In this document: in pieces, positions 14,811 through 39,075 of the stretch
How the letters are laid out: every line of letters starts with the position of its first letter
How positions within the stretch are numbered: position 1 is the stretch's first letter
Source: a virus
Taxonomy: Duplodnaviria > Heunggongvirae > Uroviricota > Caudoviricetes
IMG/VR virus record: IMGVR_UViG_2595698618_000001
Location: 79,136-143,135 of that record
Direction: 5' to 3' (one strand)
DNA: 64,000 nt
Program-made: the position numbers and the translations under genes
Notes under the pieces: generated by a model
Seen by the model: the letters and a program-made list of their open reading frames with translations, nothing else
The model's database searches: none
Told to the model about the DNA's origin: nothing

Positions 14811-15938
14811 ATGACTTGGATTACAGAGACGGCTGACCGAATCGAGGCAGAACGTGATGCGCCTTATGTCGTAAAGGGAGGCGTCTCTCCCTCGGGGACT
14901 ATTCACGTCGGGCACTTAAACGAACTTCTCTTGCCGTACTTCGTGGCAGAGGAACTACGCTCGCGTGATTATCGTGTCACACAGTATATGACTGTAGACG
15001 ACCTCGACCCAAATGTGGATAACGCAGACGCACACGTTGACGAGTTAGAACGAGTAATCAATGCACTCGGCATCGACGTTCACATCTGGCGAGCAAGCGA
15101 TGCTTACGGGGGCGGCGCACACTTAATTAACCTCTCCCACGCTCGAAAGAGTCGAAGCCGGATTGAAAGCATCGTCTCTGACTATCAGGATACTGAAGAC
15201 TTCCAAATCTTTGATGGCGAGAAGATGCCGTGGCGTCTCGAATGGGCGGCACAATGGGCTACCCTCGAAGTAGACTTTGAGCCTTACGGAAAGGACCACG
15301 CTGAAGGCTCCTTTGAAAGTGCGGCACGAATCGCAGAAGCCGCGTTTGGAATCGAGCCTCCTGTAGACTTCGTGTACGAATGGTTCACTCTCGACGGAGC
15401 CGCAATGTCTTCTTCGAGCGGCGTGAACGTCTCGGCAGAAGACGTGCTACGCTGGATTTGCCCACAAGACTTGATGGCACTCTTTCGACGGAATCCGCAA
15501 AAGCAACGCGACTTCTCCGTTGAAGACATTCCATCAATGGTGGGAAGTGTAATCGAGGATGGACCAACCTACAAGGAGGCGAGTCGCTACTGGCTTGGAT
15601 ATACGTCCCCGTCTCGAAACCTATTCCGCGAGCAATCGTGGAGTATGGATTACTTCCCGCGAGTCGAAGCCGCCGGTCAATGGGCAGAAGACTTCGGAGA
15701 AGACTACACGCTTGAATCAACCGAAGCGGATTCGGATGTGGACGAGGTAAACGCCCTGCTCGAATACGCAATGGACGGCTATTCGCCAGAAGACGTGCAA
15801 TCCTACGCATACGAGCAGGCGAAGGAGTACGGTGACGTGGGCGACTTCTTCACTCAACTGTATCGACACGTTGTTGGGCAAGATGACGGCCCGCAGGCAG
15901 GAGAACTACTCTCGGCAATCTATGGGAGTAACACTTAA
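14811..15938 (+). CDS. class-I lysyl-tRNA synthetase-like protein, truncated (catalytic Rossmann core only)
   Basis: VSPSGTIHVGHLNE resembles archaeal class-I LysRS HIGH region (ITPSGxxHxGNxRE); AAMSSSSG resembles its KMSSS(KG) motif; ~375 aa versus ~520 aa for full LysRS. Confidence 0.5.
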   Translation: MTWITETADRIEAERDAPYVVKGGVSPSGTIHVGHLNELLLPYFVAEELRSRDYRVTQYMTVDDLDPNVDNADAHVDELERVINALGIDVHIWRASDAYGGGAHLINLSHARKSRSRIESIVSDYQDTEDFQIFDGEKMPWRLEWAAQWATLEVDFEPYGKDHAEGSFESAARIAEAAFGIEPPVDFVYEWFTLDGAAMSSSSGVNVSAEDVLRWICPQDLMALFRRNPQKQRDFSVEDIPSMVGSVIEDGPTYKEASRYWLGYTSPSRNLFREQSWSMDYFPRVEAAGQWAEDFGEDYTLESTEADSDVDEVNALLEYAMDGYSPEDVQSYAYEQAKEYGDVGDFFTQLYRHVVGQDDGPQAGELLSAIYGSNT

Positions 15939-15962
15939 GTAGATAGCCACCAATGTTCTAAT

Positions 15963-16271
15963 ATGGTCAAAATCAATCTGGACGACTACGACAAAGCGGC
16001 AGAGTTCGGTCCTGTGACGAAGTTCGAGCAGACTGTTCGGACTCCCGGCTGGCCTGACGATGAGGCTGAGTGCCGTAAGGTGATGTACGAAGCCGGGCAC
16101 TACTTCAAGGTCGCACGAATCAGCACCCTCGGTTGGGGCGTCACGGAATACAACGAGAACGGGCGTCCAATTCGACGCAGTTCCAGCGAGAACCTCGGTT
16201 ACTTCGATAACGAGGAAGATGCTCACGCTCAGGCCCGAGAGTGGGTGGAGGAATATGTATCGGAGCAGTAA
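15963..16271 (+). CDS. hypothetical protein
   Basis: ORF-track ORF, ATG. Confidence 0.5.
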   Translation: MVKINLDDYDKAAEFGPVTKFEQTVRTPGWPDDEAECRKVMYEAGHYFKVARISTLGWGVTEYNENGRPIRRSSSENLGYFDNEEDAHAQAREWVEEYVSEQ

Positions 16272-16530
16272 GCCAAGCAAGGAATACGCTTGGGAGACTG
16301 TTGACGTGATGACGATTGGACAAACTGCTTACGCCTATCAGCAGAAGTATGAAGTTCGGCAAGAGATGGAGAAGAAAAGTGATAGGCCCTCGTACAGCGA
16401 TGGCCTTGGACTCGGTGTAGGTGTTGGCCTTACGATGGTCCCGACTGACGAGCATCGGTTGAAGAAGATGAAGGATACGCTCAACGAAGAAAGCATCAAG
16501 GAAGCAACGCAGGCGTGGGAAAATGAGTAA
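16255..16530 (+). CDS. hypothetical protein
   Basis: ORF-track ORF trimmed to ATG 16255 to reduce overlap. Confidence 0.4.
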   Translation: MYRSSKPSKEYAWETVDVMTIGQTAYAYQQKYEVRQEMEKKSDRPSYSDGLGLGVGVGLTMVPTDEHRLKKMKDTLNEESIKEATQAWENE

Positions 16531-16753
16531 GTATATCTGTAGCCAATGTACCGGGCGCTCTGGTGAGGAACACACGTTTCACCTGAGTCAGACGCCTAAA
16601 GCGTGCCCGTATAATGGTTGTCCCGAGCGATACATCAAGTCTATCGAAACGTATTTACGGGAGCAACTCGAAGATGCAGAGTGGGAAGCAGAGCGATGGG
16701 AAGACAAATACTACGAGTTAAAGGAGAAACAAGATGGAGATACCGATAACTAA
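16523..16753 (+). CDS. zinc-ribbon small protein
   Basis: CSQC...CPYNGC. Confidence 0.5.
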   Translation: MSKYICSQCTGRSGEEHTFHLSQTPKACPYNGCPERYIKSIETYLREQLEDAEWEAERWEDKYYELKEKQDGDTDN

Positions 16754-17441
16754 TCACCCGAACCTGCCCGAAGGCGTGCCGCTTGTTGCGGATTTCCACG
16801 ATATGCGGAATCGGTTGAGTTACTACTATCCAATCCTTCGAGATACGGATGGGGTTCGTACACCGATTACCCAATTTTACCGAATCGAGGGAGACTTCGG
16901 CTCATATCCCGAACTCGAATACCGCGAGATTACACGCTTTATGCAGGAACAGCAGATGCGCGAAGCGTTCGTGCGCGGAGATTATTCGAGTGCGAAATAC
17001 GACGAGTCAGGGAGACATATCGAGAGTCAGGACCCTTACGATATTGAGGGAACTGTCATTGAAATGATGCGACAACTCGCCCGAGGGAAACGGTATCTCG
17101 GTTCCCGAATTGCAGTACGGGAATGGGTTCCACCAGAGAAGGAGGTTCGCTACTTCTTCAAGAATGGACATATCTCGTATAAGGCAAGCCTTGACGACCC
17201 GATGGAGTTCCCCGATGAACAGGCCGAACGTGCGGCAAAGGCATTTGACAAGTATGCGTGGTCCTGCGATTTCATCAAGCACGAGGATACCGGAAAGTGG
17301 TATTGTATAGATATGGGACTCGACGGACTCTACCATAGCAAGAAGTACGGCTGGACTCCGCATAGTGAGCATCACGACGAGAAGTATTCCCCGAAGCAGT
17401 ACGTCGATGAGATGCCGAATCCGAAGGCTTTAAGGTACTAA
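16734..17441 (+). CDS. hypothetical protein (235 aa)
   Basis: ORF-track ORF, ATG. Confidence 0.55.
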   Translation: MEIPITNHPNLPEGVPLVADFHDMRNRLSYYYPILRDTDGVRTPITQFYRIEGDFGSYPELEYREITRFMQEQQMREAFVRGDYSSAKYDESGRHIESQDPYDIEGTVIEMMRQLARGKRYLGSRIAVREWVPPEKEVRYFFKNGHISYKASLDDPMEFPDEQAERAAKAFDKYAWSCDFIKHEDTGKWYCIDMGLDGLYHSKKYGWTPHSEHHDEKYSPKQYVDEMPNPKALRY

Positions 17442-17630: not shown

Positions 17631-20243
17631 ATGAGTTCAGAACAAGACGCGGCCAAGACCGACGACGAGTTTGCACAGTACCGCTCCACCGCTGGAGCCG
17701 AGGTTAAGACGGCAGATGTTGCGAGTGATACGCACCCCCTCAAGGCAGAAATCGGGGACCAGAAGGAGCGCATCTATGACGCAAAAATCGCCGGAGAACG
17801 GTTCGTTCAGTTCTACGACGATAGTGCGGCGGCTATCCGCGAGTATCTTTCCAACGCGGAGACTGCCTGCATCCGTCGAGCGCGGCACGAGTTGCTGGAT
17901 GCTGGTGTCTCGGAGCAGGACATTCCGAGTAACGTGGCAGACCTCATCGAGATGGCGCAGGAGGTTGCTGGATACGAACCTCTTATTGAAGTGACGTACA
18001 ATCGCAAGAGCGACGAGACTCGCCTCGTTATCGAGGATAACGGTATCGGCATCTCTGTCGAGGAATATCAGGTGCTTCAGCGCATCGGCTACTCCACGTC
18101 TCACGGAAACGGTGAGCGTCTTGGGCAGTTCGGGATGGGCTTTATGTCAGGGTTCCAACTGACGAGTATTCACGGTGCGTTCCGTATGTTCACCCGGTCG
18201 TACCTCACGGAAGAAGCGTACAGCACGGTGGAGTACGTGGCAAACTGTGAATATCTGGATGGCGCACCCGAGACTTACGGGACCCGTTTCGAGTTCCCCG
18301 AGTTCGGTGAGGCGGCGAAGGAGATTCACATCCCCGCAAAAGTGGCAGAATATGCGGAGGGGATGCGCGTCCCCGTCCTGTACCGGGATTTCAACTCCTC
18401 GGGTCAGGAGACTGCGGAGAGTGACGACTTCCTTCCCCGCAATATCGAGGATGATTACAGCGATGATAGTCTCGTCGTTACGTTCGAGAACGACTACTTC
18501 AAGGCTGTTATGAGTCCTGATAAGCCGACGAACCGCCCCAACTCTCACGAACTTGTCACGTACAACGTGACGATGCCTATTCGACGCAACCTCGATTCGT
18601 GGAGTACGAACGACAAGTTCGAGGCTCCGTGGAAGTGGGACTTCCGTGGCAAGAAGGAAGACGGCCCCATCGTGAAGTGCGAGTCCGATGCCTCCGTCGA
18701 GGGTCTGGTTCCTGTCGAGAACAGCAAGTACGACAATATGATTCAGGAACAGCAGGCCAAGCATCTCCCGATGAGCGACGTTCCCGACGACGCAATCGTG
18801 ATGCCCGGTCCTGCGTCCAGCCGAGACTCCTATATGGGAGGCCACGACGACTTCTGGAAGTACGTGTCGGAGTGCCTGAACGAAGCGTGGGCTGAGATTG
18901 CCAAGGAGCGTTTCGAGAACCTCTCGTCGTGGGATGACTTCAAGGCTCTTGAGCGTGACGAGAAGAACGCGCTCTACCGCGCCTACAGCCAGTTCGGTCC
19001 TTCTTACGGGACGAACGACCCTGATAACATTCAGGAGACGCTCGAAGATGCATTCGGCGTCACGGTCCCGAAGGACGTGTGTGAGAAGATTGACAAGTCT
19101 CGCAAGAGTCTGATGGTGGTTCCACGAGGTCACAATCAGGCTCACCACAAGAAGCCTGCCAAGCGCAACAAGAAGAAGATTTGGCAGATTATTGACGAAG
19201 CGCCCGATGGCGTCTATATGGGCAAGTCCGTCAGTCAGAAGAAGGCGGAGATTGCGTGGGGTCTTGGCGATACTCACGTCATTCGGATTCAGCCTGACGA
19301 TGGGCAGACCTCTAAAGAGCGATACGCGGAATTGGAGGAACTGTGGGGCTTCAAGAAGTTGAAGGACCTTCCCAACTCGAAACTCAAGGAGCGTCTTCCG
19401 AATCTGGACGACGACGTTGCTGAGGAGTGGGAGAACGCGGATTACGTCAACAACACGTCCTCGTCTGGCGGTCGTCGGACGAGCCGTGACCCTACCACGA
19501 AGCGTATCAAGGTTCGTGTCGGGAAGCGTAGCCACCGCTACTTCAGCCGCTCGAAAGTGTCGTACATCGTGGACCAGTTGGAGAACGACGATGGGATTCG
19601 TGCAGGCAACTACACGGTGAAGAAACTCATCATCTACGACCAGACGAAGGTGGGTTCTACCCCAAGCACTCGGCACGCTGACAAGTACGGCGAGCCGGGA
19701 ATCGCTGTCGCCGCTGTCCCGAAGTACGTCTACAACTACCTCAAGGACAAGAAGAACGTCTACACGGACTACGACTCCCTCAAGGATGAACTGGTGCAGG
19801 ACGAGTTGGACGAGTATGACAATTCGGAGACGCTTATCTTCGCATCGAGCGAAGTGTTCAACGAGTACGAATCGAACGAGCAGGAACTTGTCAGCCTCCT
19901 GAACGAACACTCCGACGCTGGCCTCAACGAAGACGCAGACATTGAGGTTTACAGCACGAGTGACGCGAAGAACATCAGCCACGCACAGGGCACGGACTTC
20001 AATGCGAAGGTCGTCTCTGTTAACGGGAACCGTGCGGCTCGCGGCCTGAGCGAAGCCGACTACAAACTCAATCTGGTGGACCTGAAGTTCGCCCGAGAGG
20101 TTCCTGAGATGGACTTCGACGCGCCTGAGTTCAAGCAGGTCTTCGGTCGCAAGAAGTACCTCGACGCGGATTCCGCGAAGATGAACCGTGGCATCGAGAT
20201 TGTTAAAGCCTGCGGAGGTAAGTGGCCGAGTCAGCAGGACTGA
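17631..20243 (+). CDS. large GHKL-superfamily ATPase-domain protein (870 aa)
   Basis: N-terminal region paralogous to 5141..6730 (REYLSNAETACIRRA; IEDNGIGIS; GQFGMGFMSGF); long basic/acidic C-terminal extension. Confidence 0.7.
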   Translation: MSSEQDAAKTDDEFAQYRSTAGAEVKTADVASDTHPLKAEIGDQKERIYDAKIAGERFVQFYDDSAAAIREYLSNAETACIRRARHELLDAGVSEQDIPSNVADLIEMAQEVAGYEPLIEVTYNRKSDETRLVIEDNGIGISVEEYQVLQRIGYSTSHGNGERLGQFGMGFMSGFQLTSIHGAFRMFTRSYLTEEAYSTVEYVANCEYLDGAPETYGTRFEFPEFGEAAKEIHIPAKVAEYAEGMRVPVLYRDFNSSGQETAESDDFLPRNIEDDYSDDSLVVTFENDYFKAVMSPDKPTNRPNSHELVTYNVTMPIRRNLDSWSTNDKFEAPWKWDFRGKKEDGPIVKCESDASVEGLVPVENSKYDNMIQEQQAKHLPMSDVPDDAIVMPGPASSRDSYMGGHDDFWKYVSECLNEAWAEIAKERFENLSSWDDFKALERDEKNALYRAYSQFGPSYGTNDPDNIQETLEDAFGVTVPKDVCEKIDKSRKSLMVVPRGHNQAHHKKPAKRNKKKIWQIIDEAPDGVYMGKSVSQKKAEIAWGLGDTHVIRIQPDDGQTSKERYAELEELWGFKKLKDLPNSKLKERLPNLDDDVAEEWENADYVNNTSSSGGRRTSRDPTTKRIKVRVGKRSHRYFSRSKVSYIVDQLENDDGIRAGNYTVKKLIIYDQTKVGSTPSTRHADKYGEPGIAVAAVPKYVYNYLKDKKNVYTDYDSLKDELVQDELDEYDNSETLIFASSEVFNEYESNEQELVSLLNEHSDAGLNEDADIEVYSTSDAKNISHAQGTDFNAKVVSVNGNRAARGLSEADYKLNLVDLKFAREVPEMDFDAPEFKQVFGRKKYLDADSAKMNRGIEIVKACGGKWPSQQD

Positions 20244-22432: not shown

Positions 22433-23152
22433 ATGAGCAAAGTCTTAGTATTCAGCGACGTTCACGGCAACCTTCCAGCAATGGAGGCTGTTCTCACGGA
22501 AGGCTTAAACCGTAACGTCGATTCATTCGTTTCAGTCGGTGACACAATGGGCGTCCTCGGCTGGCCGCAAGACACGGCGAAACTCGTCCGTGACGTGACA
22601 GAACACGCCGTCTACGGCAACCACGACGCCTACTTCCGTAGTGACTTCAATTGGGTCCCACACCACCCAAGCCAAAAACAAGAGCATCGTGTCGTTACTG
22701 AAAATATGTACGGATGCGTCCAAAAATGGCTGGACGACCTACCCGAAGAAGTCTACGCCGAGTACGGCGATAAGACTCTCTACATCGTCCACGCTAATCC
22801 GTTCACACCTCGCCTACTTGACAAACGTTGGGGCGAGTATAAGTGCGGCTACCCCGCTGACGGCTACTGCGGCAAAGGAAAATATACCAAAGTCGCATCT
22901 TTCGTGGATGCAGATTACGTTGCCTTGGGACACACGCACCAGCAAGCCAAACTCGACTGCTCGAAATTTGGTCACGATACCATCGTGTTCAATCCCGGTA
23001 GTGTCGGCGCACCTTACGACGAACCTGCCCGCTTCGCAATCCTTAATACTACGGAGAACGAAGTAGAACTATGCTCAACGGAATACGACGTGGAGAAAGT
23101 CAAAACACGCTTCGAGGAATTGAACATCACGGAGGACGGTGATTACCCGTGA
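22433..23152 (+). CDS. calcineurin-like metallophosphoesterase
   Basis: VFSDVHGN...GDTMG...GNHD...GHTH motifs. Confidence 0.7.
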   Translation: MSKVLVFSDVHGNLPAMEAVLTEGLNRNVDSFVSVGDTMGVLGWPQDTAKLVRDVTEHAVYGNHDAYFRSDFNWVPHHPSQKQEHRVVTENMYGCVQKWLDDLPEEVYAEYGDKTLYIVHANPFTPRLLDKRWGEYKCGYPADGYCGKGKYTKVASFVDADYVALGHTHQQAKLDCSKFGHDTIVFNPGSVGAPYDEPARFAILNTTENEVELCSTEYDVEKVKTRFEELNITEDGDYP

Positions 23153-23958: not shown

Positions 23959-24681
23959 ATGAGTATGCACAAAGCAGAACGCATCTACCGAGATTTCAGC
24001 AAGGAGCGTGGCCCCTTCGAGCAGATGGACTTCCCCGAGAAGCGCCTCCTCGATGCAGTCGGTGGCAACAACGAGTACGAAGACGCAATGCTCCTGACGG
24101 CATTCTCAACGTGCGATTACAACCGAGACGCAATGCAACTCACGGATAACCTCATCGAGTTGTACGAGGAGAGCGGCGTCTACTTCGCTCCCAAGACCTA
24201 CAGCAAGGACGGCTCCGAAGATGAACTTGCAGAAGTCCTCGAAGGCATCGGCTTCCGGTATCCAAACCGAGACGCCCACGCGCTGTTCGTCAATTACGAG
24301 ATTATCGCAGATAAGTACGGAACAATCCAGAATCTCCTCAAGGGAGTCAACTACGACGCACCCAAACTCGTCTACCGCCTCCGAGAAGACGACTTCCTCT
24401 GCGTCAAGGGAAAGAAGATTGCCCCTATGTACGCACGCTTCCTATCAGATTACATTCACTCCCTCGACCGCCTGTGGGAGTTGGACATTCCCGTGGATAC
24501 TCACATCCGACGCCTATCCCACGATATGTTCCACTCGGACCTCTCAGACGACGAGATTCGTCAGCGATGGCGGAACATCGGCCACAACACAGGAGTCTCG
24601 CCACACGTCGTAGACGGCGCTCTGTGGCTAATCGGAAACAACTGGGACGACTGGGGAGAAAACTACTGGAACGAGGTGTAA
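23959..24681 (+). CDS. HhH-GPD-type DNA glycosylase-like protein (EndoIII/AGOG-like)
   Basis: IPVDTHIRRL resembles the VDTHVxR motif of endonuclease-III family. Confidence 0.4.
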   Translation: MSMHKAERIYRDFSKERGPFEQMDFPEKRLLDAVGGNNEYEDAMLLTAFSTCDYNRDAMQLTDNLIELYEESGVYFAPKTYSKDGSEDELAEVLEGIGFRYPNRDAHALFVNYEIIADKYGTIQNLLKGVNYDAPKLVYRLREDDFLCVKGKKIAPMYARFLSDYIHSLDRLWELDIPVDTHIRRLSHDMFHSDLSDDEIRQRWRNIGHNTGVSPHVVDGALWLIGNNWDDWGENYWNEV

Positions 24682-25180: not shown

Positions 25181-25855
25181 ATGGAACTGAAAGACCTTGA
25201 AGTACGCAAGATGAACTCGTCTAAGGGGCGAGACTTCATCTTAGAGCATCACTACAGCGGCTCCTGTCACGGAGGCCCTATGTGTTGGGGTTTGTACGAG
25301 CAGGTAGACGAGGAAGACGCTCGCGGTAAGGAGTATAGCGAACGCCTCGTCGGAGTCTGCGCCTTCGCTACCCCAATCAGCGAGAACGTCCGACGCTCTA
25401 TCTGGCGAGACGACGTAGCAGAAGAAATGAAGAATCACGTCACGGAGTTGCATCGACTCGTCACCTTAGACGAGTGCCCAAAGAATACGGAGACGTGGTT
25501 CATCAGCCGCGCCCTCAAGGGATTGAAGGATTACAAAGAGAAGTATAAGGCTGTCATCAGTTTCGCAGATTCCACCGAGGGACACGCTGGCACTATTTAT
25601 CAAGCCAGTAACGCCATTTATTACGGCAGAACCGGAGAGAATACATTCTATCGAGACGGTGATGGCAACCTCCGAGCGCCTCGGCAGAACGGAGTCAACA
25701 TCTCTAAGAAGGAAGCACGAGAGCGAGGCTGGACTCCTGAGAAGCGTAAGGCGAAGCATCGGTATCTATTCCTGCTCCCTGACGCTTACGAAAGCAAGGA
25801 CGACGTTCGAGAGTTACTCGACGTTCCTGAACAAGACTACCCCGAGGGATTATAA
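25181..25855 (+). CDS. hypothetical protein (224 aa)
   Basis: ORF-track ORF. Confidence 0.55.
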   Translation: MELKDLEVRKMNSSKGRDFILEHHYSGSCHGGPMCWGLYEQVDEEDARGKEYSERLVGVCAFATPISENVRRSIWRDDVAEEMKNHVTELHRLVTLDECPKNTETWFISRALKGLKDYKEKYKAVISFADSTEGHAGTIYQASNAIYYGRTGENTFYRDGDGNLRAPRQNGVNISKKEARERGWTPEKRKAKHRYLFLLPDAYESKDDVRELLDVPEQDYPEGL

Positions 25856-26036: not shown

Positions 26037-26999
26037 ATGAGAAAGTATCCGAAGATTAAATATCCTAACGACGAGGAGGCTCGCGGCGTTTTCGCCAAGG
26101 GCGATATTGTCATTCAGGAGAAACTTGACGGTGGTAACTTTCGCTTCACACACGAGCGGAATTTGGACGAGGAATATCACACAGACTCCCGTGATATAGT
26201 GTTCGGTAGTCGCAACGTTCAGTTCAAGAATGTGCGCGATGAAAACAAGCAGTTCGAGCGACCGATGAACTACATTCGAGAGAACGTCAACCCTCAGCAC
26301 ATCCTCGACGTTGAGGATTGGTATGATGGGCGGCTGACGTTCTTCGGAGAGGCAATGACTCCCCACACGCTTGAGTACGATTGGGAGGAAACACCCGGCT
26401 TCGTCGGATTCGACGTGTACGACGAGGCTTCTGGTCGCTGGCTCAACCACACGGAACTCGAACGTGCCTTCGAGCATCTCGGCCTCCCGACTGCGGAGAT
26501 TGTAGATATTGTCTCCGCTGAAGCGTGGGACGATTACGAGGTCGAAGTTCCGCAGAGCGAGTACGGAGAAGTCGAGGCAGAGGGCCTGACCTTCAAGAAC
26601 TACGAGACACAGACCTTCTCCAAGTTCGTGCGAGACGACTTCAAGGAGAAGAACAAGAAGACGTTCGGCGGAGGCGGCGGCAATCCCAACAAAGAGCCGT
26701 CCGGTGCTGAGAAACTCTCGTACCAGTACGTGACGAACGCTCGTATCGAGAAGAACGCTCACAAGATGGTAGACGAAGGGCCGTTTGAGAGTCTCAAGAT
26801 GGAGATGATGCAACCCACGGATGGGCACGACGGCCTCCCGCAAGCGGTCATTCGTGATATGGCCGAGGAGGAAGGCGTGAACATCTTCCTCAACGAGCGA
26901 TGGGAAGTTGACATTGGCGAGTTCCGCTCCATCACGGCAAGCCGCTGTGCCGCTGTCTTGAAGCAGATGATTCAAAAGCGGGCGGTCGAGGAACTATGA
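26037..26999 (+). CDS. RNA-ligase-like covalent nucleotidyltransferase
   Basis: Motif I EKLDGGN; motif IV EGLTFK; ~320 aa, no OB/DNA-ligase C-terminal motif VI. Confidence 0.55.
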   Translation: MRKYPKIKYPNDEEARGVFAKGDIVIQEKLDGGNFRFTHERNLDEEYHTDSRDIVFGSRNVQFKNVRDENKQFERPMNYIRENVNPQHILDVEDWYDGRLTFFGEAMTPHTLEYDWEETPGFVGFDVYDEASGRWLNHTELERAFEHLGLPTAEIVDIVSAEAWDDYEVEVPQSEYGEVEAEGLTFKNYETQTFSKFVRDDFKEKNKKTFGGGGGNPNKEPSGAEKLSYQYVTNARIEKNAHKMVDEGPFESLKMEMMQPTDGHDGLPQAVIRDMAEEEGVNIFLNERWEVDIGEFRSITASRCAAVLKQMIQKRAVEEL

Positions 27000-28708: not shown

Positions 28709-30136
28709 ATGACGACGCAATCAGAATTACGAGACGCGCTGGACTACATTAAGAACGAGTCCGGCTCTGGCTCCAAGGCTCGCAAGCAGGAACGATTCGT
28801 AGACGTTTACACGGAGAACGTCGGCCACATCGTCACGGGAGAACGATACGACGATGCGGGAATTGGCAAGAAGACTGCGGAGAGCGCCGTAGAAGAACTC
28901 TACGGAGAACTCGACGGCCCTACTGTTAGCGAGTCTTTGCTCGATGCGTGGGGTGGCGATATTCAGTCGCTCGAAATCCTCGTGTCAGATTTGGACGAAC
29001 TTGCAAAACTGTCAGGCAACGAGCAGAAGGAGATGCTCGTCAATATGCTTGATGCACACGCAGAGCCAAGCCTCGTAACGCTGGCTCTCTTGGACGATGA
29101 AAGCATCGGCCTCGGGACAAGTCAGATGCGTGAGGCATTCTTCGACGGTACTCGTGATGAGCGGAAGCACGCTGAAGCCTTCGTAGAAACCACTACGGAG
29201 TTTATTTCACTCGCTCGTGACGAGGCACTTCCCACTCGGCCAATCGTCGGTCGTCCATTCGACCCGATGCTCGCGGTTCCTGAGAGTCGCGGCGAACCGG
29301 ATAATCCGATTGCACAGCGGAAGGTGGACGGATACCGTGTCCTGATTCACGTCAAGCAGGAGGAACTTGGCCCGAGAGCCTATGCCTTCTCCCGAGCGCG
29401 TAACGACGTTACAGCATCTCTCCCCGAGTTGAACGAAATCGACTGGCCGGAGCGTGGCGAATACATCCTCGACGGAGAGGTGATTGCGGAGAACGGTTCG
29501 TACAGCGACACGTCCTCGCGGGTTGGACGGAAGGCGGAGAACGTAGACCGCTCCACAGAGATGCACTTCTCTCTGTTCGACGTAGTGGTTCTAAACTCCG
29601 AGTACGTTGCCGAGCGTCCGTACAGCGATAGGTACGGTGGCCTCAAGGTCTTTATTCAAGAAGTCGATTCAGAGTATGTCAACCTTCTGGACATTTCAGA
29701 AGATGTTGAGGAAGCAAAGGACGAGGCTGTTGCGGCAGGCGAGGAAGGAATCATCGTGAAGGACTGGCACGCTCCTTACGAATTTGGCAAGCGGTCTACA
29801 TATTGGCAGAAGCGCAAGTTCGACGCAGAAACCGTGGACGTAAAGATTGTTGGATTCGATGAAGCCACGGGTGAAAAGAGTGGCACGCTCGGTGCTGTTC
29901 ACATTGAGAGTGCGGATGGCGTTCACGTCGGGAACAGCGGAAGTGGTTTCTCGGACGAACAGCGGCGTAAGATTTGGGAGAATCAGGACGACTGGATGAA
30001 CCGTTGTATTGAAGTCGAGGCTCGCGGTATCGGTACGCAGGGGAAACTGCGTATGCCCATCTTCAAGCGGGACCGTTCAGAGGATGGTGAGCCTGACTCC
30101 TACGACCGTATCTGCGAGATTATGAAGGAGATTTAG
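28709..30136 (+). CDS. lig: ATP-dependent DNA ligase
   Basis: Motif I KVDGYR, motif III FDVV, motif IV EGIIVKD, C-terminal motif VI LRMPIFKRDRSED. Confidence 0.85.
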   Translation: MTTQSELRDALDYIKNESGSGSKARKQERFVDVYTENVGHIVTGERYDDAGIGKKTAESAVEELYGELDGPTVSESLLDAWGGDIQSLEILVSDLDELAKLSGNEQKEMLVNMLDAHAEPSLVTLALLDDESIGLGTSQMREAFFDGTRDERKHAEAFVETTTEFISLARDEALPTRPIVGRPFDPMLAVPESRGEPDNPIAQRKVDGYRVLIHVKQEELGPRAYAFSRARNDVTASLPELNEIDWPERGEYILDGEVIAENGSYSDTSSRVGRKAENVDRSTEMHFSLFDVVVLNSEYVAERPYSDRYGGLKVFIQEVDSEYVNLLDISEDVEEAKDEAVAAGEEGIIVKDWHAPYEFGKRSTYWQKRKFDAETVDVKIVGFDEATGEKSGTLGAVHIESADGVHVGNSGSGFSDEQRRKIWENQDDWMNRCIEVEARGIGTQGKLRMPIFKRDRSEDGEPDSYDRICEIMKEI

Positions 30137-33365: not shown

Positions 33366-34430
33366 ATGACGCGACAAAGTTTCAGGCAGGTTTGTGTAGA
33401 GCGAGACGGCGGTGAGTGCGTCTCCCCACATTGTAACAACCCTGTCACGAGCGACCCCGATGGACCGGGTGAGGTTCATCACATCATCGAGCGCAAACTA
33501 TGGGACGACGGTGGCTATATCCCCAACAATGGTGCATCCGTATGCAACGATTGTCACCGGATGGCAGAGGATAACATCATCCCACCACAAGCCTTCTGGC
33601 GATGGATTGGCATTGAGAATCCACCGCTCCCTGAAGGCATCGAGTCGATGCACATTGATAAATGGGGAGAACCGCTGGAAGAACCACCGTGGAAAGAGTA
33701 CCGTGAGAACATCAAGTATCCGAGTACCCGCCACCTCCCATTCAGCCACGAGCGAGACGCTGACGATACCGCACATCAAAGTGTTGACGTATTCCTCAAC
33801 ATTCCACTCGTCGCAACGTACAAGATGGACGGAGGAAACGCAATGCTCGTGAAAGATACCGAGAACCCCGTTCGAGCAAGGAACGGTCGCCAAGCCAACA
33901 AGGAACACTTCGATATGGCAAAGCAATGGTACTGGAGCGAAGGACTCTACGAGAAAATCCCCGAGCATCTACAAATCTTCGGAGAATGGCTCTACGCCAA
34001 GCACAGCATTCATTACGGCTGTGACTGCGAGGAAGAATGCGAAGACGTTGGACCAGCACTCCGAGATTATTTCCAAGTCTTCGGCGTGTACGATACTCGC
34101 TACGACTTATGGCTCGGCTGGATTGAGACGAAACGAGTCGCCGCAGAGTTGGGCCTGACGATGGCACAAGGCGTTGACGACCGAGAACACGAAGACAACT
34201 TCGCACCAATAGGAGAATTTGACAATCGCCAAAAGTTTTGGGATTATGCTTGGAGTTTGTCACAAAAGGCCGTAAACGAAGGACACGAGGGCATAGTCGT
34301 CCGTTCAGCCCTGCCTTTCCACTATGGACAAATCGGAGAGCGTCTTGGCAAATACGTTCGTCCCGGTCACGTCAAGGAGGGTGAAGAACATTGGTCGAAG
34401 CGACCCCTCGTTCAAAATCGACGGAGTTAA
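33366..34430 (+). CDS. HNH endonuclease domain fused to ligase-type nucleotidyltransferase (RNA/DNA-ligase-like)
   Basis: N-terminal HNH (C..C..HHIIE...NG..VCNDCH); then motif I YKMDGGN and motif IV EGIVVRS. Confidence 0.55.
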   Translation: MTRQSFRQVCVERDGGECVSPHCNNPVTSDPDGPGEVHHIIERKLWDDGGYIPNNGASVCNDCHRMAEDNIIPPQAFWRWIGIENPPLPEGIESMHIDKWGEPLEEPPWKEYRENIKYPSTRHLPFSHERDADDTAHQSVDVFLNIPLVATYKMDGGNAMLVKDTENPVRARNGRQANKEHFDMAKQWYWSEGLYEKIPEHLQIFGEWLYAKHSIHYGCDCEEECEDVGPALRDYFQVFGVYDTRYDLWLGWIETKRVAAELGLTMAQGVDDREHEDNFAPIGEFDNRQKFWDYAWSLSQKAVNEGHEGIVVRSALPFHYGQIGERLGKYVRPGHVKEGEEHWSKRPLVQNRRS

Positions 34431-34850: not shown

Positions 34851-34874
34851 GTAATGTCCTCACGTATTACGAGT

Positions 34875-35798
34875 ATGGAGAACGTACTTGATTTGTTCTG
34901 TGGCGCAGGCGGTCTGTCCCACGGATTCGAGCAGGCAGGCTATCGAGTCCTCGCAGGAGTAGACGTATGGGACGATGCACTCGAAACGTATCGCCTCAAT
35001 CACCCAAGCGTCGGCCTCGAAGTAGATATGCACACCGTCGAGCCATCGGAACTCCCGCTCTCCAAAGAGCAGGTAGACGTTGTTATTGGAGGCCCACCCT
35101 GCAAGGGCTTCAGTCTTGCAGGAGAACGAGACTCTGACGACGAGCGGAATCAACTCGTCGCACGGTTCCTCGATTACGTGGAGTATTTCGAGCCAGCAAC
35201 GGTTGTAATGGAGAATGTCGTCGGCATCCTCTCGATGGACCTACCCGGCTACGACGGGAGCGTTCCTGATTATATCCACGATAGGCTTCGCTCGATGGGT
35301 TTCGAGACGGACCATCAAACGCTGGACGCAACTAATTATGGTATCGCTCAGACGAGGCGACGTGTGTTCTTCGTTGGAACTCGCGGGCGGTTCCCGTCCT
35401 ATCCGAAGCCCACGACGGCTGATGTTACGATGCCAGTTGCAGGGGTCTTGGAGTATGACTTCACGGGTTTCCCGAATCACACGTACACGAACCATCAGCA
35501 GTCCACGATTGATAAGATGGCCGCCCTCGATTACGAGGAATCCGTGTACGATACATATCAGGAGGCGTGGAAGCGTCTGCATCCGTTGAAGCCTGCACCG
35601 ACGATTAAGGAGAATCATAACGCTCCATTCGTCCACTACTCGGAAGACCGTGTAGGTACTCCCCGAGAGTGTACGGCGATTCAGACCTTCCCAAATAATT
35701 ACGAGTTCCGTGGAACGAAGTCGAGCGTTCTTAAGCAGATTGGCAACGCCGTGCCACCAGAACTCGCACGACACGTTGCGAAAGCCTTAAGTGAATAG
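34875..35798 (+). CDS. dcm: C5-cytosine DNA methyltransferase
   Basis: FCGAGG (motif I), GGPPCKGFS (motif IV PC), ENV (VI), QIGNAVPP (X); start set at agtATG 34875. Confidence 0.85.
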   Translation: MENVLDLFCGAGGLSHGFEQAGYRVLAGVDVWDDALETYRLNHPSVGLEVDMHTVEPSELPLSKEQVDVVIGGPPCKGFSLAGERDSDDERNQLVARFLDYVEYFEPATVVMENVVGILSMDLPGYDGSVPDYIHDRLRSMGFETDHQTLDATNYGIAQTRRRVFFVGTRGRFPSYPKPTTADVTMPVAGVLEYDFTGFPNHTYTNHQQSTIDKMAALDYEESVYDTYQEAWKRLHPLKPAPTIKENHNAPFVHYSEDRVGTPRECTAIQTFPNNYEFRGTKSSVLKQIGNAVPPELARHVAKALSE

Positions 35799-36263: not shown

Positions 36264-36454
36264 ACGAGCAAGAACGACTGTACGCAATCGGCGTACTTGA
36301 GCAGAGTCCACACGAGATTGACCACATTAGAGCGACGATACTCAAGCGACGGTCGAGCATTACGTTCAGCGATGAAGACCAACCCATCGGGGAGAAGGGG
36401 AAATGGATGGCGTTTGACACGACGCTCAAAGACTCACTCGAAACGCTTAAGTAG
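36260..36454 (+). CDS. hypothetical protein
   Basis: ATGA-coupled. Confidence 0.45.
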   Translation: MNEQERLYAIGVLEQSPHEIDHIRATILKRRSSITFSDEDQPIGEKGKWMAFDTTLKDSLETLK

Positions 36455-36474
36455 TTACCCGAGTAAGTAGAAGT

Positions 36475-36957
36475 ATGAAAATTTGGGAGAATATCAAACT
36501 GTTGCTCGTCGTACTGTTCCTGATTAGCATACCAATGACGCTGTTCGGTGCAGGTGCGGTGCTGGTCGGCGGGTTCTTCCCGCAGGAAACATCCTATCAG
36601 TACGAGGTGAAGGCACAACAGGTATTCGACGGCGATAGGGTCGAGGATAGCGACGTGACTGAGTTCGAGGAATTGTCAGCGGATGAACAGGATGTGCTGT
36701 TTCGAGCATTCAAGAAGTCTGACCACTTTATGGGAACCAGTCAGGTAACTGTCTATAATGGGAACGAGCGCCTCGATACGTTTACAAATTGGCGCACGGT
36801 TGAGAGCAACGGAGTCCTGCTACTGGTTGCAATCAACGAGCATCAGGAGACACAGCCCGATACCTCAGAGCATAAGTGGTATCATTGGATGGTCCTATAC
36901 TCGATGATATATTGTATGGTCGGGTTCTTCGTGATACTGTTCCTGCCGCCGATGTAG
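36475..36957 (+). CDS. membrane protein
   Basis: N- and C-terminal TM helices. Confidence 0.5.
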   Translation: MKIWENIKLLLVVLFLISIPMTLFGAGAVLVGGFFPQETSYQYEVKAQQVFDGDRVEDSDVTEFEELSADEQDVLFRAFKKSDHFMGTSQVTVYNGNERLDTFTNWRTVESNGVLLLVAINEHQETQPDTSEHKWYHWMVLYSMIYCMVGFFVILFLPPM

Positions 36958-36991
36958 AAAGAGTTAAGTACCTATCCCACGAAGTAGAAGT

Positions 36992-37762
36992 ATGAGCAAG
37001 GAAGTAGACCAAATGCTGTCGAACCTCAAGGCAATCAAGAACGGGGACGACCCCCGAGAATCGAAGGAGGAAGAAGCGGCAGTCCAGCAAGCAACGAGCG
37101 AGCCTGTCCCCGCATCGTCACAGCAAGATGATGCACTCGCTGTTGCGGAGAAGGAAGTGGACCGACTCTACGACGAGTACCCCGAGTTGGCAGACCACCT
37201 CCCCCGCTCGAATCTTCATATGGGCGTGGCTCGATGGGATGGACGCAATGGCTACTGCAAGTATAACACTCGCTTCGGTGGCAAGCGCCGGTTCAACAAG
37301 CGGGTGACGCAGACGAAGCATCGGAGCGGGCATCACATCAATGTCATCAACGAGAAGATTTTCGAGCAGGGCAACGTCGAAGACTTCCTCGATACGGTGC
37401 GCCACGAGGTAGCCCACGCCGTCGTTTACGAGATGCACGGCTCCTCGCAGAAGCACAACCACAACTGGAAGGCACTCGCCGCAAAGTTGGGTGCAGACCC
37501 GTCCTCGTGTCACTCCAAGCGGGACCGAAGCGACGAGTATAACTACTATATCGGATGCCCCAACTGTGGCTACAAGGGTGGCAAGACGAAGCGCAGTAAG
37601 GTCATCAAGCAACCGTTCAATCGGATGTGTGGCCGCTGTGGTGAGACGGGAATGGTGTCGTTTGATGCAGGCGATGAAATGCCTGACGAGAACGGTGTCG
37701 TCGCAGTCGAGTCAATCCCGTGGGATAACAAGGACGAGTGGTACGACGCAGGAATGCCGTAA
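36992..37762 (+). CDS. SprT-like zinc metalloprotease with C-terminal zinc ribbon
   Basis: HEVAHAVVYEMH (HExxH) + CPNCGY...CGRCG. Confidence 0.55.
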   Translation: MSKEVDQMLSNLKAIKNGDDPRESKEEEAAVQQATSEPVPASSQQDDALAVAEKEVDRLYDEYPELADHLPRSNLHMGVARWDGRNGYCKYNTRFGGKRRFNKRVTQTKHRSGHHINVINEKIFEQGNVEDFLDTVRHEVAHAVVYEMHGSSQKHNHNWKALAAKLGADPSSCHSKRDRSDEYNYYIGCPNCGYKGGKTKRSKVIKQPFNRMCGRCGETGMVSFDAGDEMPDENGVVAVESIPWDNKDEWYDAGMP

Positions 37763-37794
37763 CACTTAAGGTAGTGGCTCCCCTCTCTTTGGGT

Positions 37795-39075
37795 ATGGAA
37801 CATACGCTACCAGAACTACCATCCGAGTTTGACGGACTCCCAACGTTTGTCGTTGGTGGATGGGTTCGTGACGCCTTCCGAGAGGGAGTCGAGCCTTCGG
37901 ACGTTGACTTGATGGTTACGGAAGTTACGCCAGAAGAAATGCGTGAGCGTGGCTTCACGGAGATTGATAACTCCGGCAACGACACATTCGCCGTCTTCCT
38001 CGATAGCCTCGGCAGAGAGGTTGCGATAGCAAGAGAGGAAGTCTCCACGGGAGAAGGGCACACGGATTTCACGGTCGAGCCAGTCCCGGCAAACGTTCGC
38101 GCTCTTGAAGCAGTCGAGCGTGACCTTTTGCGTAGGGATTTCACGGTTAACAGTATGGCGGTTGACGCTCGCAGAGGAATCCTCCACGACCCTCACGGTG
38201 GACGCCAAGCCTTAGAAGACGGCACGCTCCGTCACGTCAACGAGTCCGGCTTCATCGAAGACCCGCTACGCATCCTTCGAGGGGCACGGTTCGCCGCACG
38301 ACTCGGCGCAGAAGTCGCAGACGAGACGAAGATACTAATGGCAGAAATGTCACCACGCCTCCAAGACCTGCCCGGTGAGCGAATCCGTATGGAATTGGAG
38401 AAGAACTTCAAGCAAGCGAAGAATCCACGCATATTCTTCGACGTTCTTGAAGAAGTCTTCGCACTCGAATGGGCATTCCCCGAGTTGATGGCACTCAAGC
38501 ACGTTCCGGCAGGACCACCCGAGTTCCACAATGAAGGCTCCGCCTTTGAACACACGATGCTCGTCCTCGAAGAAATGTTCGAGTTACGCGGAAACGACGA
38601 GTTGGGTCTGCTGATGGCCTTAGCCCACGACTTAGGCAAGGTCGAGACGCCCGAAGACGAGTTACCAAGCCACCGTGGTCACGGTAACAGAGACGCTCCC
38701 CTATGGAGAATGAGCGATAGGCTTAAGTTCAGCAACCGCCAAGAGCGTGCAATGAGTGAAGCAATGCACCACCATATGCGCCTCAAGCACATCGAGGATA
38801 TGAACGAGAAGACGCTATTCGACACGTTCACGCACGTTCACAATCCAGATAGGCTGGTTGACTTGATGATAGCCGACGCTCGTGGGAGGGACCCGCAAGG
38901 AGACTTCCCTGCCGAGACGCTCAGGGACGCATTCGAGCGAGCCGAGCAAGCCTGCGAGAACGTCACGGGCCAAACGCTAATCAACGCCGGAAAACAGCCC
39001 GACGAGATAGGCGGCGAGAAGTTCGGCAAGTTGCTCAGAGACGCACGCATCAGCGAGATGAAAAGGCTTAAGTAA
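37795..39075 (+). CDS. class-II nucleotidyltransferase (CCA-adding / poly(A)-polymerase head) fused to HD phosphohydrolase domain
   Basis: GGWVRD...DVDLMV polβ head; HD...LAHDLGK; domain order as in bacterial CCA enzymes. Confidence 0.7.
   Translation: MEHTLPELPSEFDGLPTFVVGGWVRDAFREGVEPSDVDLMVTEVTPEEMRERGFTEIDNSGNDTFAVFLDSLGREVAIAREEVSTGEGHTDFTVEPVPANVRALEAVERDLLRRDFTVNSMAVDARRGILHDPHGGRQALEDGTLRHVNESGFIEDPLRILRGARFAARLGAEVADETKILMAEMSPRLQDLPGERIRMELEKNFKQAKNPRIFFDVLEEVFALEWAFPELMALKHVPAGPPEFHNEGSAFEHTMLVLEEMFELRGNDELGLLMALAHDLGKVETPEDELPSHRGHGNRDAPLWRMSDRLKFSNRQERAMSEAMHHHMRLKHIEDMNEKTLFDTFTHVHNPDRLVDLMIADARGRDPQGDFPAETLRDAFERAEQACENVTGQTLINAGKQPDEIGGEKFGKLLRDARISEMKRLK

Follow-up and report, generated by a model that had tools for sequence, protein, structure and literature searches.

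The six genes of Halogranum tailed virus 1 (HGTV-1) that an earlier note had assembled into an RNA end-healing toolkit are, on balance, scattered auxiliary genes, four of which appear to serve tRNA supply and maintenance. Credibly directed at tRNA or RNA are those for a lysyl-tRNA synthetase (LysRS)-like protein, an Rnl2-like ligase, an HNH-ligase fusion and a class II CCA/HD enzyme, and the six together are probably a loose set that matures, charges and repairs tRNA, rather than a T4-style heal-and-seal pathway. Both the set of genes and its link to tRNA have been published before (PMC8651126; PMC7824862); Liu et al. 2021 (PMC8651126) give two ligases, the CCA enzyme, LysRS and RtcB as the tRNA-metabolism genes of HGTV-1. 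What this analysis adds is minor: the deletions in LysRS, an assignment of RlaP and the synteny that relatives conserve.

The window, a stretch of 64,000 nucleotides, corresponds to positions 79136-143135 of HGTV-1 (NC_021328). All six open reading frames are present on its plus strand and are 100% identical to the annotated genes 197, 208, 217, 223, 233 and 242, each of which already carries a GenBank annotation. The sole discrepancy is the start of gene 242, which GenBank places at a GTG at 37774 instead of the ATG at 37795. Apart from the HD hit treated below, the domain matches of the six genes stand well clear of chance. The relevant features, in window positions, are:

14811-15938, plus strand: gene 197, shortened class I LysRS of 375 residues (Pfam tRNA-synt_1f, 1.6e-51)
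16776-17441, plus strand: gene 201, R2K-clade ATP-grasp protein (PF14243 R2K_3, 2.4e-6; 28.3 bits, cut-off 26.3)
22433-23152, plus strand: gene 208, stand-alone calcineurin-type metallophosphoesterase of the YfcE/MJ0936/SapH kind (Metallophos_2, 2.8e-18)
26037-26999, plus strand: gene 217, Rnl2-type ATP-dependent RNA ligase (RNA_ligase PF09414, 3.4e-17)
28709-30136, plus strand: gene 223, ATP-dependent DNA ligase (DNA_ligase_A_M, 1e-25; OB_2, 1.6e-8)
33366-33680, plus strand: gene 233, N-terminal HNH (zinc-finger-type) nuclease domain (Pfam HNH, 4e-5, residues 23-68)
33708-34430, plus strand: gene 233, C-terminal ligase domain (PF09414, 1.6e-18, residues 147-331)
37774-39075, plus strand: gene 242, class II CCA-adding enzyme with C-terminal HD domain (PolyA_pol, 2.6e-17; PolyA_pol_RNAbd, 5e-9)
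about 37846-38232: gene 242, head domain
about 38311-38490: gene 242, RNA-binding body
about 38554-38811: gene 242, HD phosphohydrolase domain (Pfam HD, 0.011)

Gene 197 bears out the earlier description of a truncated class I LysRS. Aligned to haloarchaeal LysRS-I, which has about 545 residues, its product shows three blocks of deletions (columns 104-153, columns 212-269 and several blocks after column 384). The Rossmann catalytic core and the helical C-terminus are still there, while the Zn-binding insertion is gone, as is a large share of the anticodon-binding region; the protein's match to PDB entry 1IRX (2.3e-25) is accordingly split over four separate stretches. The active site is conserved between viral and cellular forms, with HVGH and the haloarchaeal-type AMSSS loop kept in the alignment. 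In GluQ-RS/YadB, which modifies tRNA-Asp, a GluRS catalytic core likewise lacks the anticodon-binding domain. Gp197 resembles it as a class I core with part of the tRNA-recognition apparatus missing and the active-site motifs intact, but differs in its C-terminal helical region homologous to LysRS-I; the likeness is an analogy only, and nothing in gp197 supports a changed reaction. The short form recurs in just three metagenomic proteins, and no size match ties their contigs to the large ligase-bearing ones, which argues that the set was not inherited as a unit.

The product of gene 242 matches the NCBIfam family of multifunctional CCA addition/repair proteins (NF008137) over nearly its full length (2.8e-70, residues 24-429 against 3-400 of 409; 237 bits, under the equivalog cut-off of 451). 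Its HD domain scores 16.4 bits, under the Pfam cut-off of 22, and we accept it because of this full-length match and because an alignment to Salmonella Cca shows the HD ligands (H...HD...H...D) to be kept; GGxVRD, DxD, RRD and EDPLR are kept as well. The class II CCA and HD assignment of the earlier note thus stands. E. coli Cca is collinear with gp242 over the full length and shares the head-domain motifs and HD metal ligands, the differences being an identity of about 35% and the origin of gp242 from an archaeal virus. Further matches are to phrog_2244 (4.5e-106) and to class II CCA enzymes in the PDB (1e-18), and no archaeal virus other than HGTV-1 is listed or named among the 422 phage records that match gp242. 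The host lineage employs class I CCA enzymes. With E. coli-type Cca as its best family, gp242 is of bacterial or phage type, and the foreign origin that had been proposed is reasonable.

CCA is encoded in 0 of the 36 annotated viral tRNA genes; three do end in these letters, only because stem bases precede the discriminator. Maturation of viral tRNAs is therefore sufficient to explain a CCA enzyme, and the repair role that the earlier note had invoked for it is not needed.

Both proteins with KxDG motifs fall into RNA-ligase families in profile searches, in agreement with their initial description as an Rnl-like nucleotidyltransferase and an HNH-nucleotidyltransferase fusion. Gp217 combines a nucleotidyltransferase domain with a C-terminal domain that is entirely helical, and is covered over its full length by phrog_548 (4e-37). 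T4 Rnl2 is its best match both by sequence profile against the PDB (2hvq, 1.3e-8, 2-264 against 4-301) and by fold, where full-length T4 Rnl2 (2hvr/2hvq, 9e-10) heads the Foldseek matches of an AlphaFold model with a pLDDT of 88.9. Nucleotidyltransferase motifs and a helical domain at the C terminus are common to the two proteins, whereas their identity over the structural alignment is just 13-14% and motif V reads K-F-V-R in gp217, not K-x-K. Residues E28, K29, D31, G32, N34, R59, E105, E182, G183 and K196 are invariant among 25 homologues. To our knowledge, the biological role of T4 Rnl2 has not been established.

Gp233 differs from T4 Rnl2 in having an N-terminal HNH domain and no C-terminal domain; its ligase part is a nucleotidyltransferase domain alone, without an OB domain. 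The HNH domain is modelled at pLDDT > 90, and C18, C23, H38, H39, N55, C60 and H64 are invariant among 24 homologues, as are K153, D155, G156, N158, R170, R172 and E207 of the ligase domain, where E308, G309, K329 and R332 are at least 90% conserved. The best Foldseek matches (1e-6 to 1e-4) are to the nucleotidyltransferase domains of Rnl3 (8uci, 5d1o, 2vug), Rnl5 (NgrRnl) and T4 Rnl2. The full-length fusion occurs in 445 metagenomic proteins and in jumbo phages of Caulobacter, Acinetobacter, Ralstonia and Salicola. Ligases of the PF09414 family are capable of acting on DNA or RNA:DNA hybrids, and the HNH fusion could hint at DNA.

The six genes lie loosely spaced among 46 annotated genes over 24 kb, separated by about 40 unrelated reading frames mostly of unknown function, and do not form an operon. 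A run of the four RNA-directed genes as short as the one seen has p ~0.014 in a naive permutation, a post hoc test. Gene 201, whose product may be a modifier of translation proteins according to the role predicted for the R2K family (PMC7824862), is a tentative associate of the RNA set. In a relative represented by a 72.7-kb metagenomic contig (L005), the order of the Rnl2, HNH-ligase, DNA ligase and CCA genes is kept within 9.5 kb, and in five cases the longest contigs with gp217 and gp233 homologues are equal in size, which suggests that homologues of the two ligases share contigs. Since gene order is common to relatives, the clustering reflects inherited synteny. In another relative the order is shuffled and runs DNA ligase, LysRS-like gene, Pol X-like gene, which speaks against an operon.

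Proximity might be nothing but the inherited order of a block of functionally unrelated auxiliary genes, with both ligases working on DNA: gp233 in nick-and-reseal or homing-type events, gp217 on nicks in DNA or RNA:DNA hybrids during replication. After an HNH cut, a ligase can directly rejoin the 3'-OH/5'-phosphate ends, and many genes of the block are directed at DNA (EndoIII, Mom, a DNA methyltransferase, SprT, a Pol X lyase/HhH protein, HNH and LAGLIDADG endonucleases). LAGLIDADG genes adjoin the ligase and CCA genes in L005, gene order differs between relatives, and the fold matches of gp233 to the DNA ligases of ASFV and T4 trail those to RNA ligases only slightly. We nevertheless consider this rather improbable, as both proteins match RNA ligases best in sequence and in fold, gp217 possesses the C-terminal domain specific to Rnl2, and jumbo phages rich in tRNAs carry the HNH-ligase fusion, which has been classed with RNA-repair ligases (PMC7824862).

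Moreover, a dedicated DNA ligase is already there. Gp223 comprises adenylation and OB domains and part of a DNA-binding domain, and matches phrog_114 (5e-67) as well as, under the curated cut-offs, the NCBIfam families LigA_Halo (6e-33) and NHEJ ligase (8e-31). The earlier note was right in its identity as a bona fide ATP-dependent DNA ligase, but its place in an RNA toolkit is not supported: EndoIII, the Pol X dRP-lyase/HhH protein, SprT and Mom genes surround it, in another relative it adjoins a Pol X-like gene, and the enzyme acts on DNA, outside any RNA pathway.

The recognisable RNA-repair core of HGTV-1 falls outside the window, 5-15 kb upstream, where RtcB (1e-64), an RlaP nucleotidyltransferase (7e-36), Ro60/TROVE (3e-22) and an HD protein are encoded. 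The virus thus does invest in RNA repair, as had been suggested; the specific parallel drawn with T4 is not supported and the analogy is only loose. Pnkp and Rnl1 of T4 repair tRNA-Lys cut by the anticodon nuclease PrrC. For HGTV-1, a counter-defence of this type would have gp208 and/or the HD domain of gp242 heal the ends of tRNAs cut by a host anticodon nuclease, gp217 or gp233 seal them and gp242 restore CCA. RNA-ligase, CCA/HD and phosphoesterase domains are indeed all present, in common with T4 the virus encodes ATP-dependent RNA ligase and phosphoesterase activities (here predicted), RtcB, RlaP and Ro60 are encoded as well, and a link to tRNA-Lys is conceivable, given LysRS and two viral tRNA-Lys species, of which the CUU species has G instead of A at position 37, possibly an evasion-type change of the anticodon loop. 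Such gene combinations in jumbo phages have been read as counter-measures to tRNA-cleaving defences, with calcineurin-like or HD phosphatases occasionally standing in for HAD phosphatases (PMC7824862), and phage tRNAs counter tRNA-targeting defences (PMC10264068, PMC11555353).

Against this, no real reading frame of the window contains a Walker A motif or P-loop kinase, the whole genome offers no convincing 5' kinase, and the ligases are of the Rnl2/PF09414 type, with no Rnl1-type ligase and neither a HAD-type 3' phosphatase nor a 2H phosphoesterase found. Breaks by metal-independent anticodon nucleases would require a 5' kinase before Rnl2-type sealing, which also counts against the tRNA-repair role favoured below for gp217, and 2',3'-cyclic-phosphate/5'-OH ends are already covered by RtcB alone. 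No host anticodon nuclease is known, nor does the 2026 host-genome paper mention one. Gp208 is correctly named a calcineurin-like phosphoesterase, whereas its casting as end-healer is not supported: it is a generic enzyme (TIGR00040 YfcE, 1.6e-13, under the cut-off), with PDB sequence matches such as 3rqz (9e-11) and 3qfm (1e-8) and no lambda-phosphatase or Pnkp-type chain among them. A tblastn search of the phage collection brought up no homologue outside the virus's own record, and the stretch of L005 that was read has no Metallophos-annotated gene. Gp208 is no obligate partner, and it is doubtful that it belongs to the RNA set. Overall, we regard a T4-like pathway as unlikely.

A role in tRNA splicing, with the Rnl2-type ligases joining exon halves of intron-containing viral tRNAs, is attributed to Sencilo et al. 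2013 in a suggestion quoted in PMC8651126. One or two viral tRNA genes do have anticodon-arm insertions (Ala-UGC, 103 nt; a 132-nt 'Asp' gene), too few to justify two extra ligases. The archaeal splicing endonuclease leaves 2',3'-cyclic-phosphate and 5'-OH ends. These are substrates of RtcB, which the virus encodes, while ATP-dependent ligases would first need a kinase and a phosphatase. The host lineage encodes RtcB too, which further counts against splicing, and we hold it to be very improbable.

Among the closest parallels to HGTV-1 is the RNA-repair and tRNA-provisioning arsenal of jumbo bacteriophages, which Burroughs and Aravind are said to have described in 2016. As laid out by Iyer et al. 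2021 (PMC7824862), it shares with HGTV-1 the many tRNAs, RtcB, RlaP, Ro60/TROVE, a class II CCA-adding enzyme, Rnl2-family ligases including N-terminal HNH fusions, occasional calcineurin-like or HD phosphatases, and the dispersal of genes without an operon. HGTV-1 differs in its haloarchaeal host, its genome of 144 kb, under the usual jumbo threshold, the missing polynucleotide kinase, HAD phosphatase and 2H phosphoesterase, and the added minimised archaeal-type class I LysRS.

Domain identities, conserved catalytic residues, the absence of encoded CCA and the synteny in relatives are shown; for the set of auxiliary tRNA genes that we favour, we infer from here on the substrates and any cooperation, as we would any tie to host defence. 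Gp242 would add CCA to the viral pre-tRNAs and rebuild shortened tRNA 3' ends. Yakunin and colleagues are said to have found in 2004 that E. coli Cca, which has an HD domain, is also a phosphatase, 2'-nucleotidase and 2',3'-cyclic phosphodiesterase; the HD domain of gp242 might similarly strip 2',3'-cyclic or 3'-phosphates from those ends. Gp197, presumably derived from the haloarchaeal LysRS-I, then minimised with its aminoacylation site retained, probably charges tRNA-Lys, the two viral species among them, and would recognise tRNA in an altered way. Gp217 may seal 3'-OH/5'-phosphate nicks in base-paired RNA, for instance in broken tRNAs, and gp233, a second ligase domain fused to an HNH module that cuts or binds, may perform a related task of breaking and joining or of repair, while gp223 would be the replication and repair DNA ligase. 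With RtcB dealing with 2',3'-cyclic-phosphate/5'-OH breaks, gp242, gp197, gp217 and gp233 would thus complement the RtcB-RlaP-Ro60-HD repair genes of the virus.

A 20-kb part of the region matches Halogranum tailed virus 1 (HGTV-1, KC292026 / NC_021328) with 100% identity. HGTV-1 is a myovirus of the Halomagnusviridae that has a genome of 143,855 bp and infects a haloarchaeon; subtracting 79,135 from a coordinate of its record gives the coordinate in the window. All six ORFs that the earlier note had named are found on the plus strand, and each is already annotated in the HGTV-1 record:

gene 197, plus strand: class I lysyl tRNA synthetase
gene 208, plus strand: NinI-like serine-threonine phosphatase / metallophosphatase
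gene 217, plus strand: RNA ligase
gene 223, plus strand: ATP-dependent DNA ligase
gene 233, plus strand: RNA ligase with HNH domain
gene 242, plus strand: tRNA nucleotidyltransferase

In the following, gp197 and so forth denote the products of these genes. Their connection to tRNA is also on record. Liu et al. 2021 (PMC8651126), who quote a suggestion of tRNA splicing by Sencilo et al. 2013, give 36 tRNA genes for HGTV-1, and Iyer et al. 2021 (PMC7824862) have described the same combination of enzymes in jumbo phages as an RNA-repair and tRNA-provisioning arsenal with which these phages counter attacks of the host on tRNA. For the tRNA genes of HGTV-1, a 2026 paper on its host, Halogranum roseipondis, arrives at a count of 34; it treats codon usage, not these enzymes. 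The finding is thus known already and mainly re-derives existing annotation: GenBank and Liu et al. 2021 contain these genes of this virus together with their link to tRNA, and Iyer et al. 2021 the toolkit concept. Our additions are modest: a deletion map of the LysRS, the assignment of gene 126 to RlaP, the observation that the viral tRNA genes encode no CCA, the conservation of a ligase-ligase-ligase-CCA synteny in metagenomic relatives, and the absence of a kinase.

The LysRS-like protein gp197 matches Pfam tRNA-synt_1f (1.6e-51) and, split over four separate stretches, the LysRS-I of P. horikoshii (1IRX, 2.3e-25); its score against TIGR00467 (131.7) is under the cut-off of 147.55. Its closest relatives are three equally short metagenomic proteins (59-74% identity), which make this a short family of four members in all; next come full-length haloarchaeal LysRS-I of ~545 aa (~30-40% identity). 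The Rossmann-fold core is present with its HIGH and KMSKS-equivalent loops, and in the alignment with LysRS-I the HIGH loop (HVGH), the AMSSS loop and other active-site columns are invariant. The same alignment shows deletions of a ~45-residue block, of the ~58-residue CxxC...GCGH zinc insertion and of several blocks, ~110 residues in total, in the C-terminal, tRNA-recognition half, so that gp197 lacks the full class I LysRS domain set with Zn-binding insertion and anticodon-binding helical region. Given these block deletions, which include the zinc insertion, next to invariant active-site columns, the earlier description of the protein as truncated is right, and its sequence indicates that gp197 probably still activates lysine. 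We also considered whether AMSSS is a degenerate KMSKS loop, and gp197 inactive, but rejected this because cellular haloarchaeal LysRS-I carry A(L/F)SSS at the same position.

Gene 201 (16776-17441 of the window, plus strand), 0.8 kb downstream of the LysRS-like gene and annotated as hypothetical, encodes an ATP-grasp protein of the R2K clade (PF14243, 2.4e-6, above the cut-off), a clade predicted to tag proteins of translation with aminoacyl or peptide groups (PMC7824862).

The CCA/HD enzyme gp242 has the head and body domains of class II enzymes, with matches to both PolyA_pol and PolyA_pol_RNAbd. NF008137, "multifunctional CCA addition/repair protein", aligns with it from end to end (2.8e-70), and it further matches phrog_2244 (4.5e-106) and class II CCA enzymes in the PDB. 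The motifs of its Pol-beta head (GGxVRD, DxD, RRD, EDxxR) read GGWVRD, DVDLMV, RRDFTVNS and EDPLRILRGARF; GGWVRD, DxD, RRD and EDPLR align with Salmonella Cca, as do the metal ligands of the C-terminal HD domain (FEHT, AHDLGK, HRGHG, ADARGR) with the corresponding Cca residues. The HD domain is intact and could heal 3' ends, and the HMM ranking, in which CCA families outscore PcnB by 237 to 80 bits, favours CCA specificity over an A-adding enzyme, a CC-adding enzyme or a poly(A) polymerase. Homologues occur in 422 phage records, and among those listed or named HGTV-1 is the sole archaeal virus. Because archaea use class I CCA enzymes, this pattern fits an acquisition from the bacterial or phage world, the foreign origin that had been suggested for the gene. 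A scan of IMG/VR for further relatives yielded distant homologues only (at most 38% identity), with no useful context.

The viral tRNA genes are located at record positions 42266-53420 and 70440-70571 (in L003 and L004, stretches of the record upstream of the window), with the main cluster at 42-53 kb. None of the 36 annotated genes encodes the 3' CCA tail, the three that end in CCA doing so only because of stem bases before the discriminator, and every viral tRNA therefore needs CCA addition. An 85-nt tRNA-Gly(UCC) called by ARAGORN at 41969-42053 (minus strand) is absent from the record annotation, lies antisense to CDS 250 and has no Rfam tRNA match at gathering score; it is a probable false positive. 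In our reading of the sequence, the anticodon loop of tRNA-Lys(CUU) (record 50195-50271, minus strand; L004 5195-5271) is C-U-C-U-U-G-A, which puts G at position 37, where tRNAs reading ANN codons are expected to have A37, the t6A site; tRNA-Lys(UUU) of the virus does have this usual A37. Anticodon-loop changes of an evasion type have been described for phage tRNAs (PMC10264068), and G37 might be one of these.

Single-sequence phmmer searches with the two putative RNA ligases, gp217 and gp233, against the PDB gave no match; with a family profile, gp217 gained matches, whereas the ligase part of gp233 was matched only via its structure model. gp217 matches PF09414 and, over its full length, phrog_548. 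Its 25-sequence profile had T4 Rnl2 as best PDB match (1.3e-8), in an alignment that extends into the C-terminal domain and reaches residue 301 of 2hvq. The top fold match of the AlphaFold model (pLDDT 88.9) is likewise full-length T4 Rnl2 (9e-10, 357-369 columns aligned), and residues 223-319 are helical in the model, so that the all-helical C-terminal domain, the signature of Rnl2, is present. The residues EK29xDGxN, R59, E105, E182-G183 and K196, which show no variation across 25 homologues, correspond in the alignment to K35, R55, E99, E204 and K225 of T4 Rnl2 and make up the covalent nucleotidyltransferase motifs I, III, IIIa, IV and V, catalytic lysine included. A further homologue with 65% identity to gp217 (P0037) is deposited as "Candidatus Nanosalina sp. 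J07AB43" and may be a viral or proviral sequence within a nanohaloarchaeal genome bin.

gp233 begins with an HNH domain, whose Cys, His and Asn ligands are invariant, followed by a PF09414 nucleotidyltransferase domain with an invariant K153 and conserved remaining motif residues. At 354 aa it ends just past motif V (K329, R332), and its model (pLDDT 85) contains no Rnl2-signature C-terminal domain. The fold matches of this model are nucleotidyltransferase domains, those of Rnl3, Rnl5 and Rnl2, and, scoring a little lower, DNA ligases; that gp217 and gp233 act on DNA is, in our judgement, quite unlikely. Fusions of the gp233 type have been placed under Rnl2 in the broad sense (PMC7824862). They are common in hypersaline metagenomes (445 proteins), and full-length homologues of gp233 are found in jumbo phages of Caulobacter, Acinetobacter, Ralstonia and Salicola and in huge uncultured phages.

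These assignments bear on the parallel that the earlier note had drawn to T4, where Pnkp and Rnl heal and seal tRNAs broken by host anticodon nucleases. A general theme of viral tRNA-pool protection is plausible and matches published interpretations of jumbo phages, but we regard a T4-like heal-and-seal pathway as unlikely, since its defining features, a polynucleotide 5'-kinase and an Rnl1-family ligase, are missing. In the fold search with gp217, T4 Rnl1 (5tt6, 2c5u) scored 8.7e-5 against 9e-10 for the top match, far under Rnl2, Rnl5 and Rnl3, and it is absent among the 50 fold matches listed for gp233. A Walker A scan of the window ORFs of at least 50 aa had matches in two frames only, neither of them an annotated gene, and genome-wide the motif occurs in one annotated protein, a 607-aa hypothetical without a Pfam family. 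Pfam scans, which included 39 neighbouring and upstream proteins, detected no kinase families, and this lack of a kinase argues against a T4-type pathway. PADLOC, run on seven proteins, returned nothing relevant.

The proposed role of gp208 as an RNA end-healing phosphoesterase is doubtful. It is a generic Metallophos_2 enzyme whose PDB relatives are the uncharacterised metallophosphoesterase 3rqz, SapH (3qfm) and YfcE, with no lambda-phosphatase or Pnkp-type chains among its PDB matches, and tblastn found no homologue in other records of the phage collection. A phosphoesterase of this kind, non-specific and not conserved, further counts against a heal-and-seal pathway, as does the fact that no host nuclease is known; the 2026 host-genome paper mentions no anticodon nuclease.

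The remaining enzyme, gp223, combines an adenylation domain (PF01068, 1e-25) with an OB-fold (PF14743, 1.6e-8) and matches several NCBIfam DNA-ligase models, every one below its curated cut-off; it is a real ATP-dependent DNA ligase, as claimed. The six genes are spread among 46 annotated genes, and the ORFs between them are mostly small and without a family. Those that can be identified are DNA-directed, comprising LAGLIDADG and HNH endonucleases and the following (window coordinates):

23959-24681, plus strand: EndoIII/AGOG-like glycosylase
25181-25855, plus strand: Mom
34854-35798, plus strand: DNA methyltransferase
36992-37762, plus strand: SprT
41480-41887, plus strand: Pol X fragment (135 aa), the 8-kDa/HhH part, contrary to the annotated nucleotidyltransferase domain

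The DNA-repair and modification genes interleave with the RNA genes; with the DNA ligase added, they resemble a set for base-excision repair. The product of gene 203 (17631-20243 of the window, plus strand), 870 aa long, bears a GHKL (HATPase_c_3) ATPase domain at its N terminus; the gene is distinct from the annotated Hsp90-like gene 172. Two metagenomic contigs related to HGTV-1, L005 and L008, encode comparable proteins (858-860 aa) that have Pfam matches of the GHKL family.

L005, a contig of 72.7 kb, conserves within 9.5 kb the gene order GHKL ATPase ... 337-aa protein ... Rnl2, LAGLIDADG, HNH-ligase, DNA ligase, LAGLIDADG, CCA enzyme; no Metallophos-annotated gene is present in the stretch of L005 that was read. 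In L008, the DNA ligase, a LysRS-like gene and a Pol X-like gene adjoin one another, which shows that gene order shuffles between relatives. The longest contigs of homologues of the two RNA ligases are equal in size in five cases, which suggests that these homologues share contigs; for the LysRS-like family, no such size match ties its members to the large ligase-bearing contigs. For the four RNA genes to lie within a run of 46, a naive permutation gave a p of ~0.014; this is a post hoc value, and the common descent of a block of auxiliary genes accounts for their proximity.

The CCA-enzyme gene of L005 (17988-19468) is divided into two ORFs, one for the head and one for the body/HD half, with the break precisely at the boundary. 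One frame of the 170-nt spacer ("...LVLLCNTHHPEIESL") resembles, in our own reading, the remnant of an HNH endonuclease, and a LAGLIDADG gene lies directly upstream. The insertion of a homing endonuclease could have left the gene in pieces.

Outside the window, the HGTV-1 genome has the make-up of the RtcB-centred RNA repair systems of Burroughs & Aravind, in which RtcB occurs with RlaP and/or Ro60 partners:

record 64543-74392 (L004 19543-29392), minus strand: RlaP/Ro60/RtcB/HD set as a whole
gene 126, minus strand: RlaP nucleotidyltransferase (PF10127, 7.2e-36), annotated merely as "nucleotidyltransferase"
gene 129, minus strand: Ro60/TROVE + vWA protein (TROVE 3.1e-22, Ro60 vWA domain)
gene 140, minus strand: RtcB (1.2e-64)
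gene 141, minus strand: weakly SLOG/YAcAr-like protein
gene 143, minus strand: HD-domain protein (HD, 2.3e-5)
record 70440-70571 (L004 25440-25571), minus strand: 132-nt tRNA-like gene between the Ro60-like gene and RtcB, annotated "tRNA-Asp + intron"

In the 132-nt gene, which matches the Rfam tRNA family with 45.7 bits, 71 nt replace the 13-nt anticodon arm. ARAGORN did not call it, and its fold does not stand out (z = -1.4). Two readings are conceivable: a tRNA with an intron, or a Y RNA of the tRNA-like YrlA type that partners the Ro60 protein. A use of the ATP-dependent ligases in tRNA splicing is very improbable on chemical grounds, since the ends left by the archaeal splicing endonuclease are of the kind joined by RtcB and not by an ATP-dependent ligase.

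The best-supported reading, and in our view the probable one, is that of a dispersed tRNA supply-and-maintenance set which serves the virus's own large tRNA complement. In such a set, gp242 would mature the viral tRNAs and could rebuild or heal their 3' ends, gp197 would charge tRNA-Lys, and gp217 would seal 3'-OH/5'-P nicks in structured RNA. A related role, cut-or-bind-and-join, may fall to gp233. Breaks with cyclic phosphates would be handled by RtcB and RlaP from outside the window, and gp223 would belong to DNA replication and repair, with gp208 left unassigned.

Much more speculatively, the virus might possess a self-sufficient, host-nuclease-resistant lysine-decoding unit, in which a minimised LysRS, independent of the anticodon loop, charges viral tRNA-Lys variants, one of them with G37, and Rnl2, HNH-ligase, Cca-HD, RtcB and RlaP mend the breaks inflicted by a host defence directed at tRNA. 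We consider this a long shot; if true, the conflict over tRNA-Lys in bacteria (PrrC, PARIS) would have its first counterpart in archaea. Should the enzymes work as proposed for the supply-and-maintenance set, RNA ligases adapted to salt and a repair enzyme of the CCA/HD type would become available for study, and the conflict over tRNA integrity, well documented for bacteria and their phages, would extend to archaea and their viruses.
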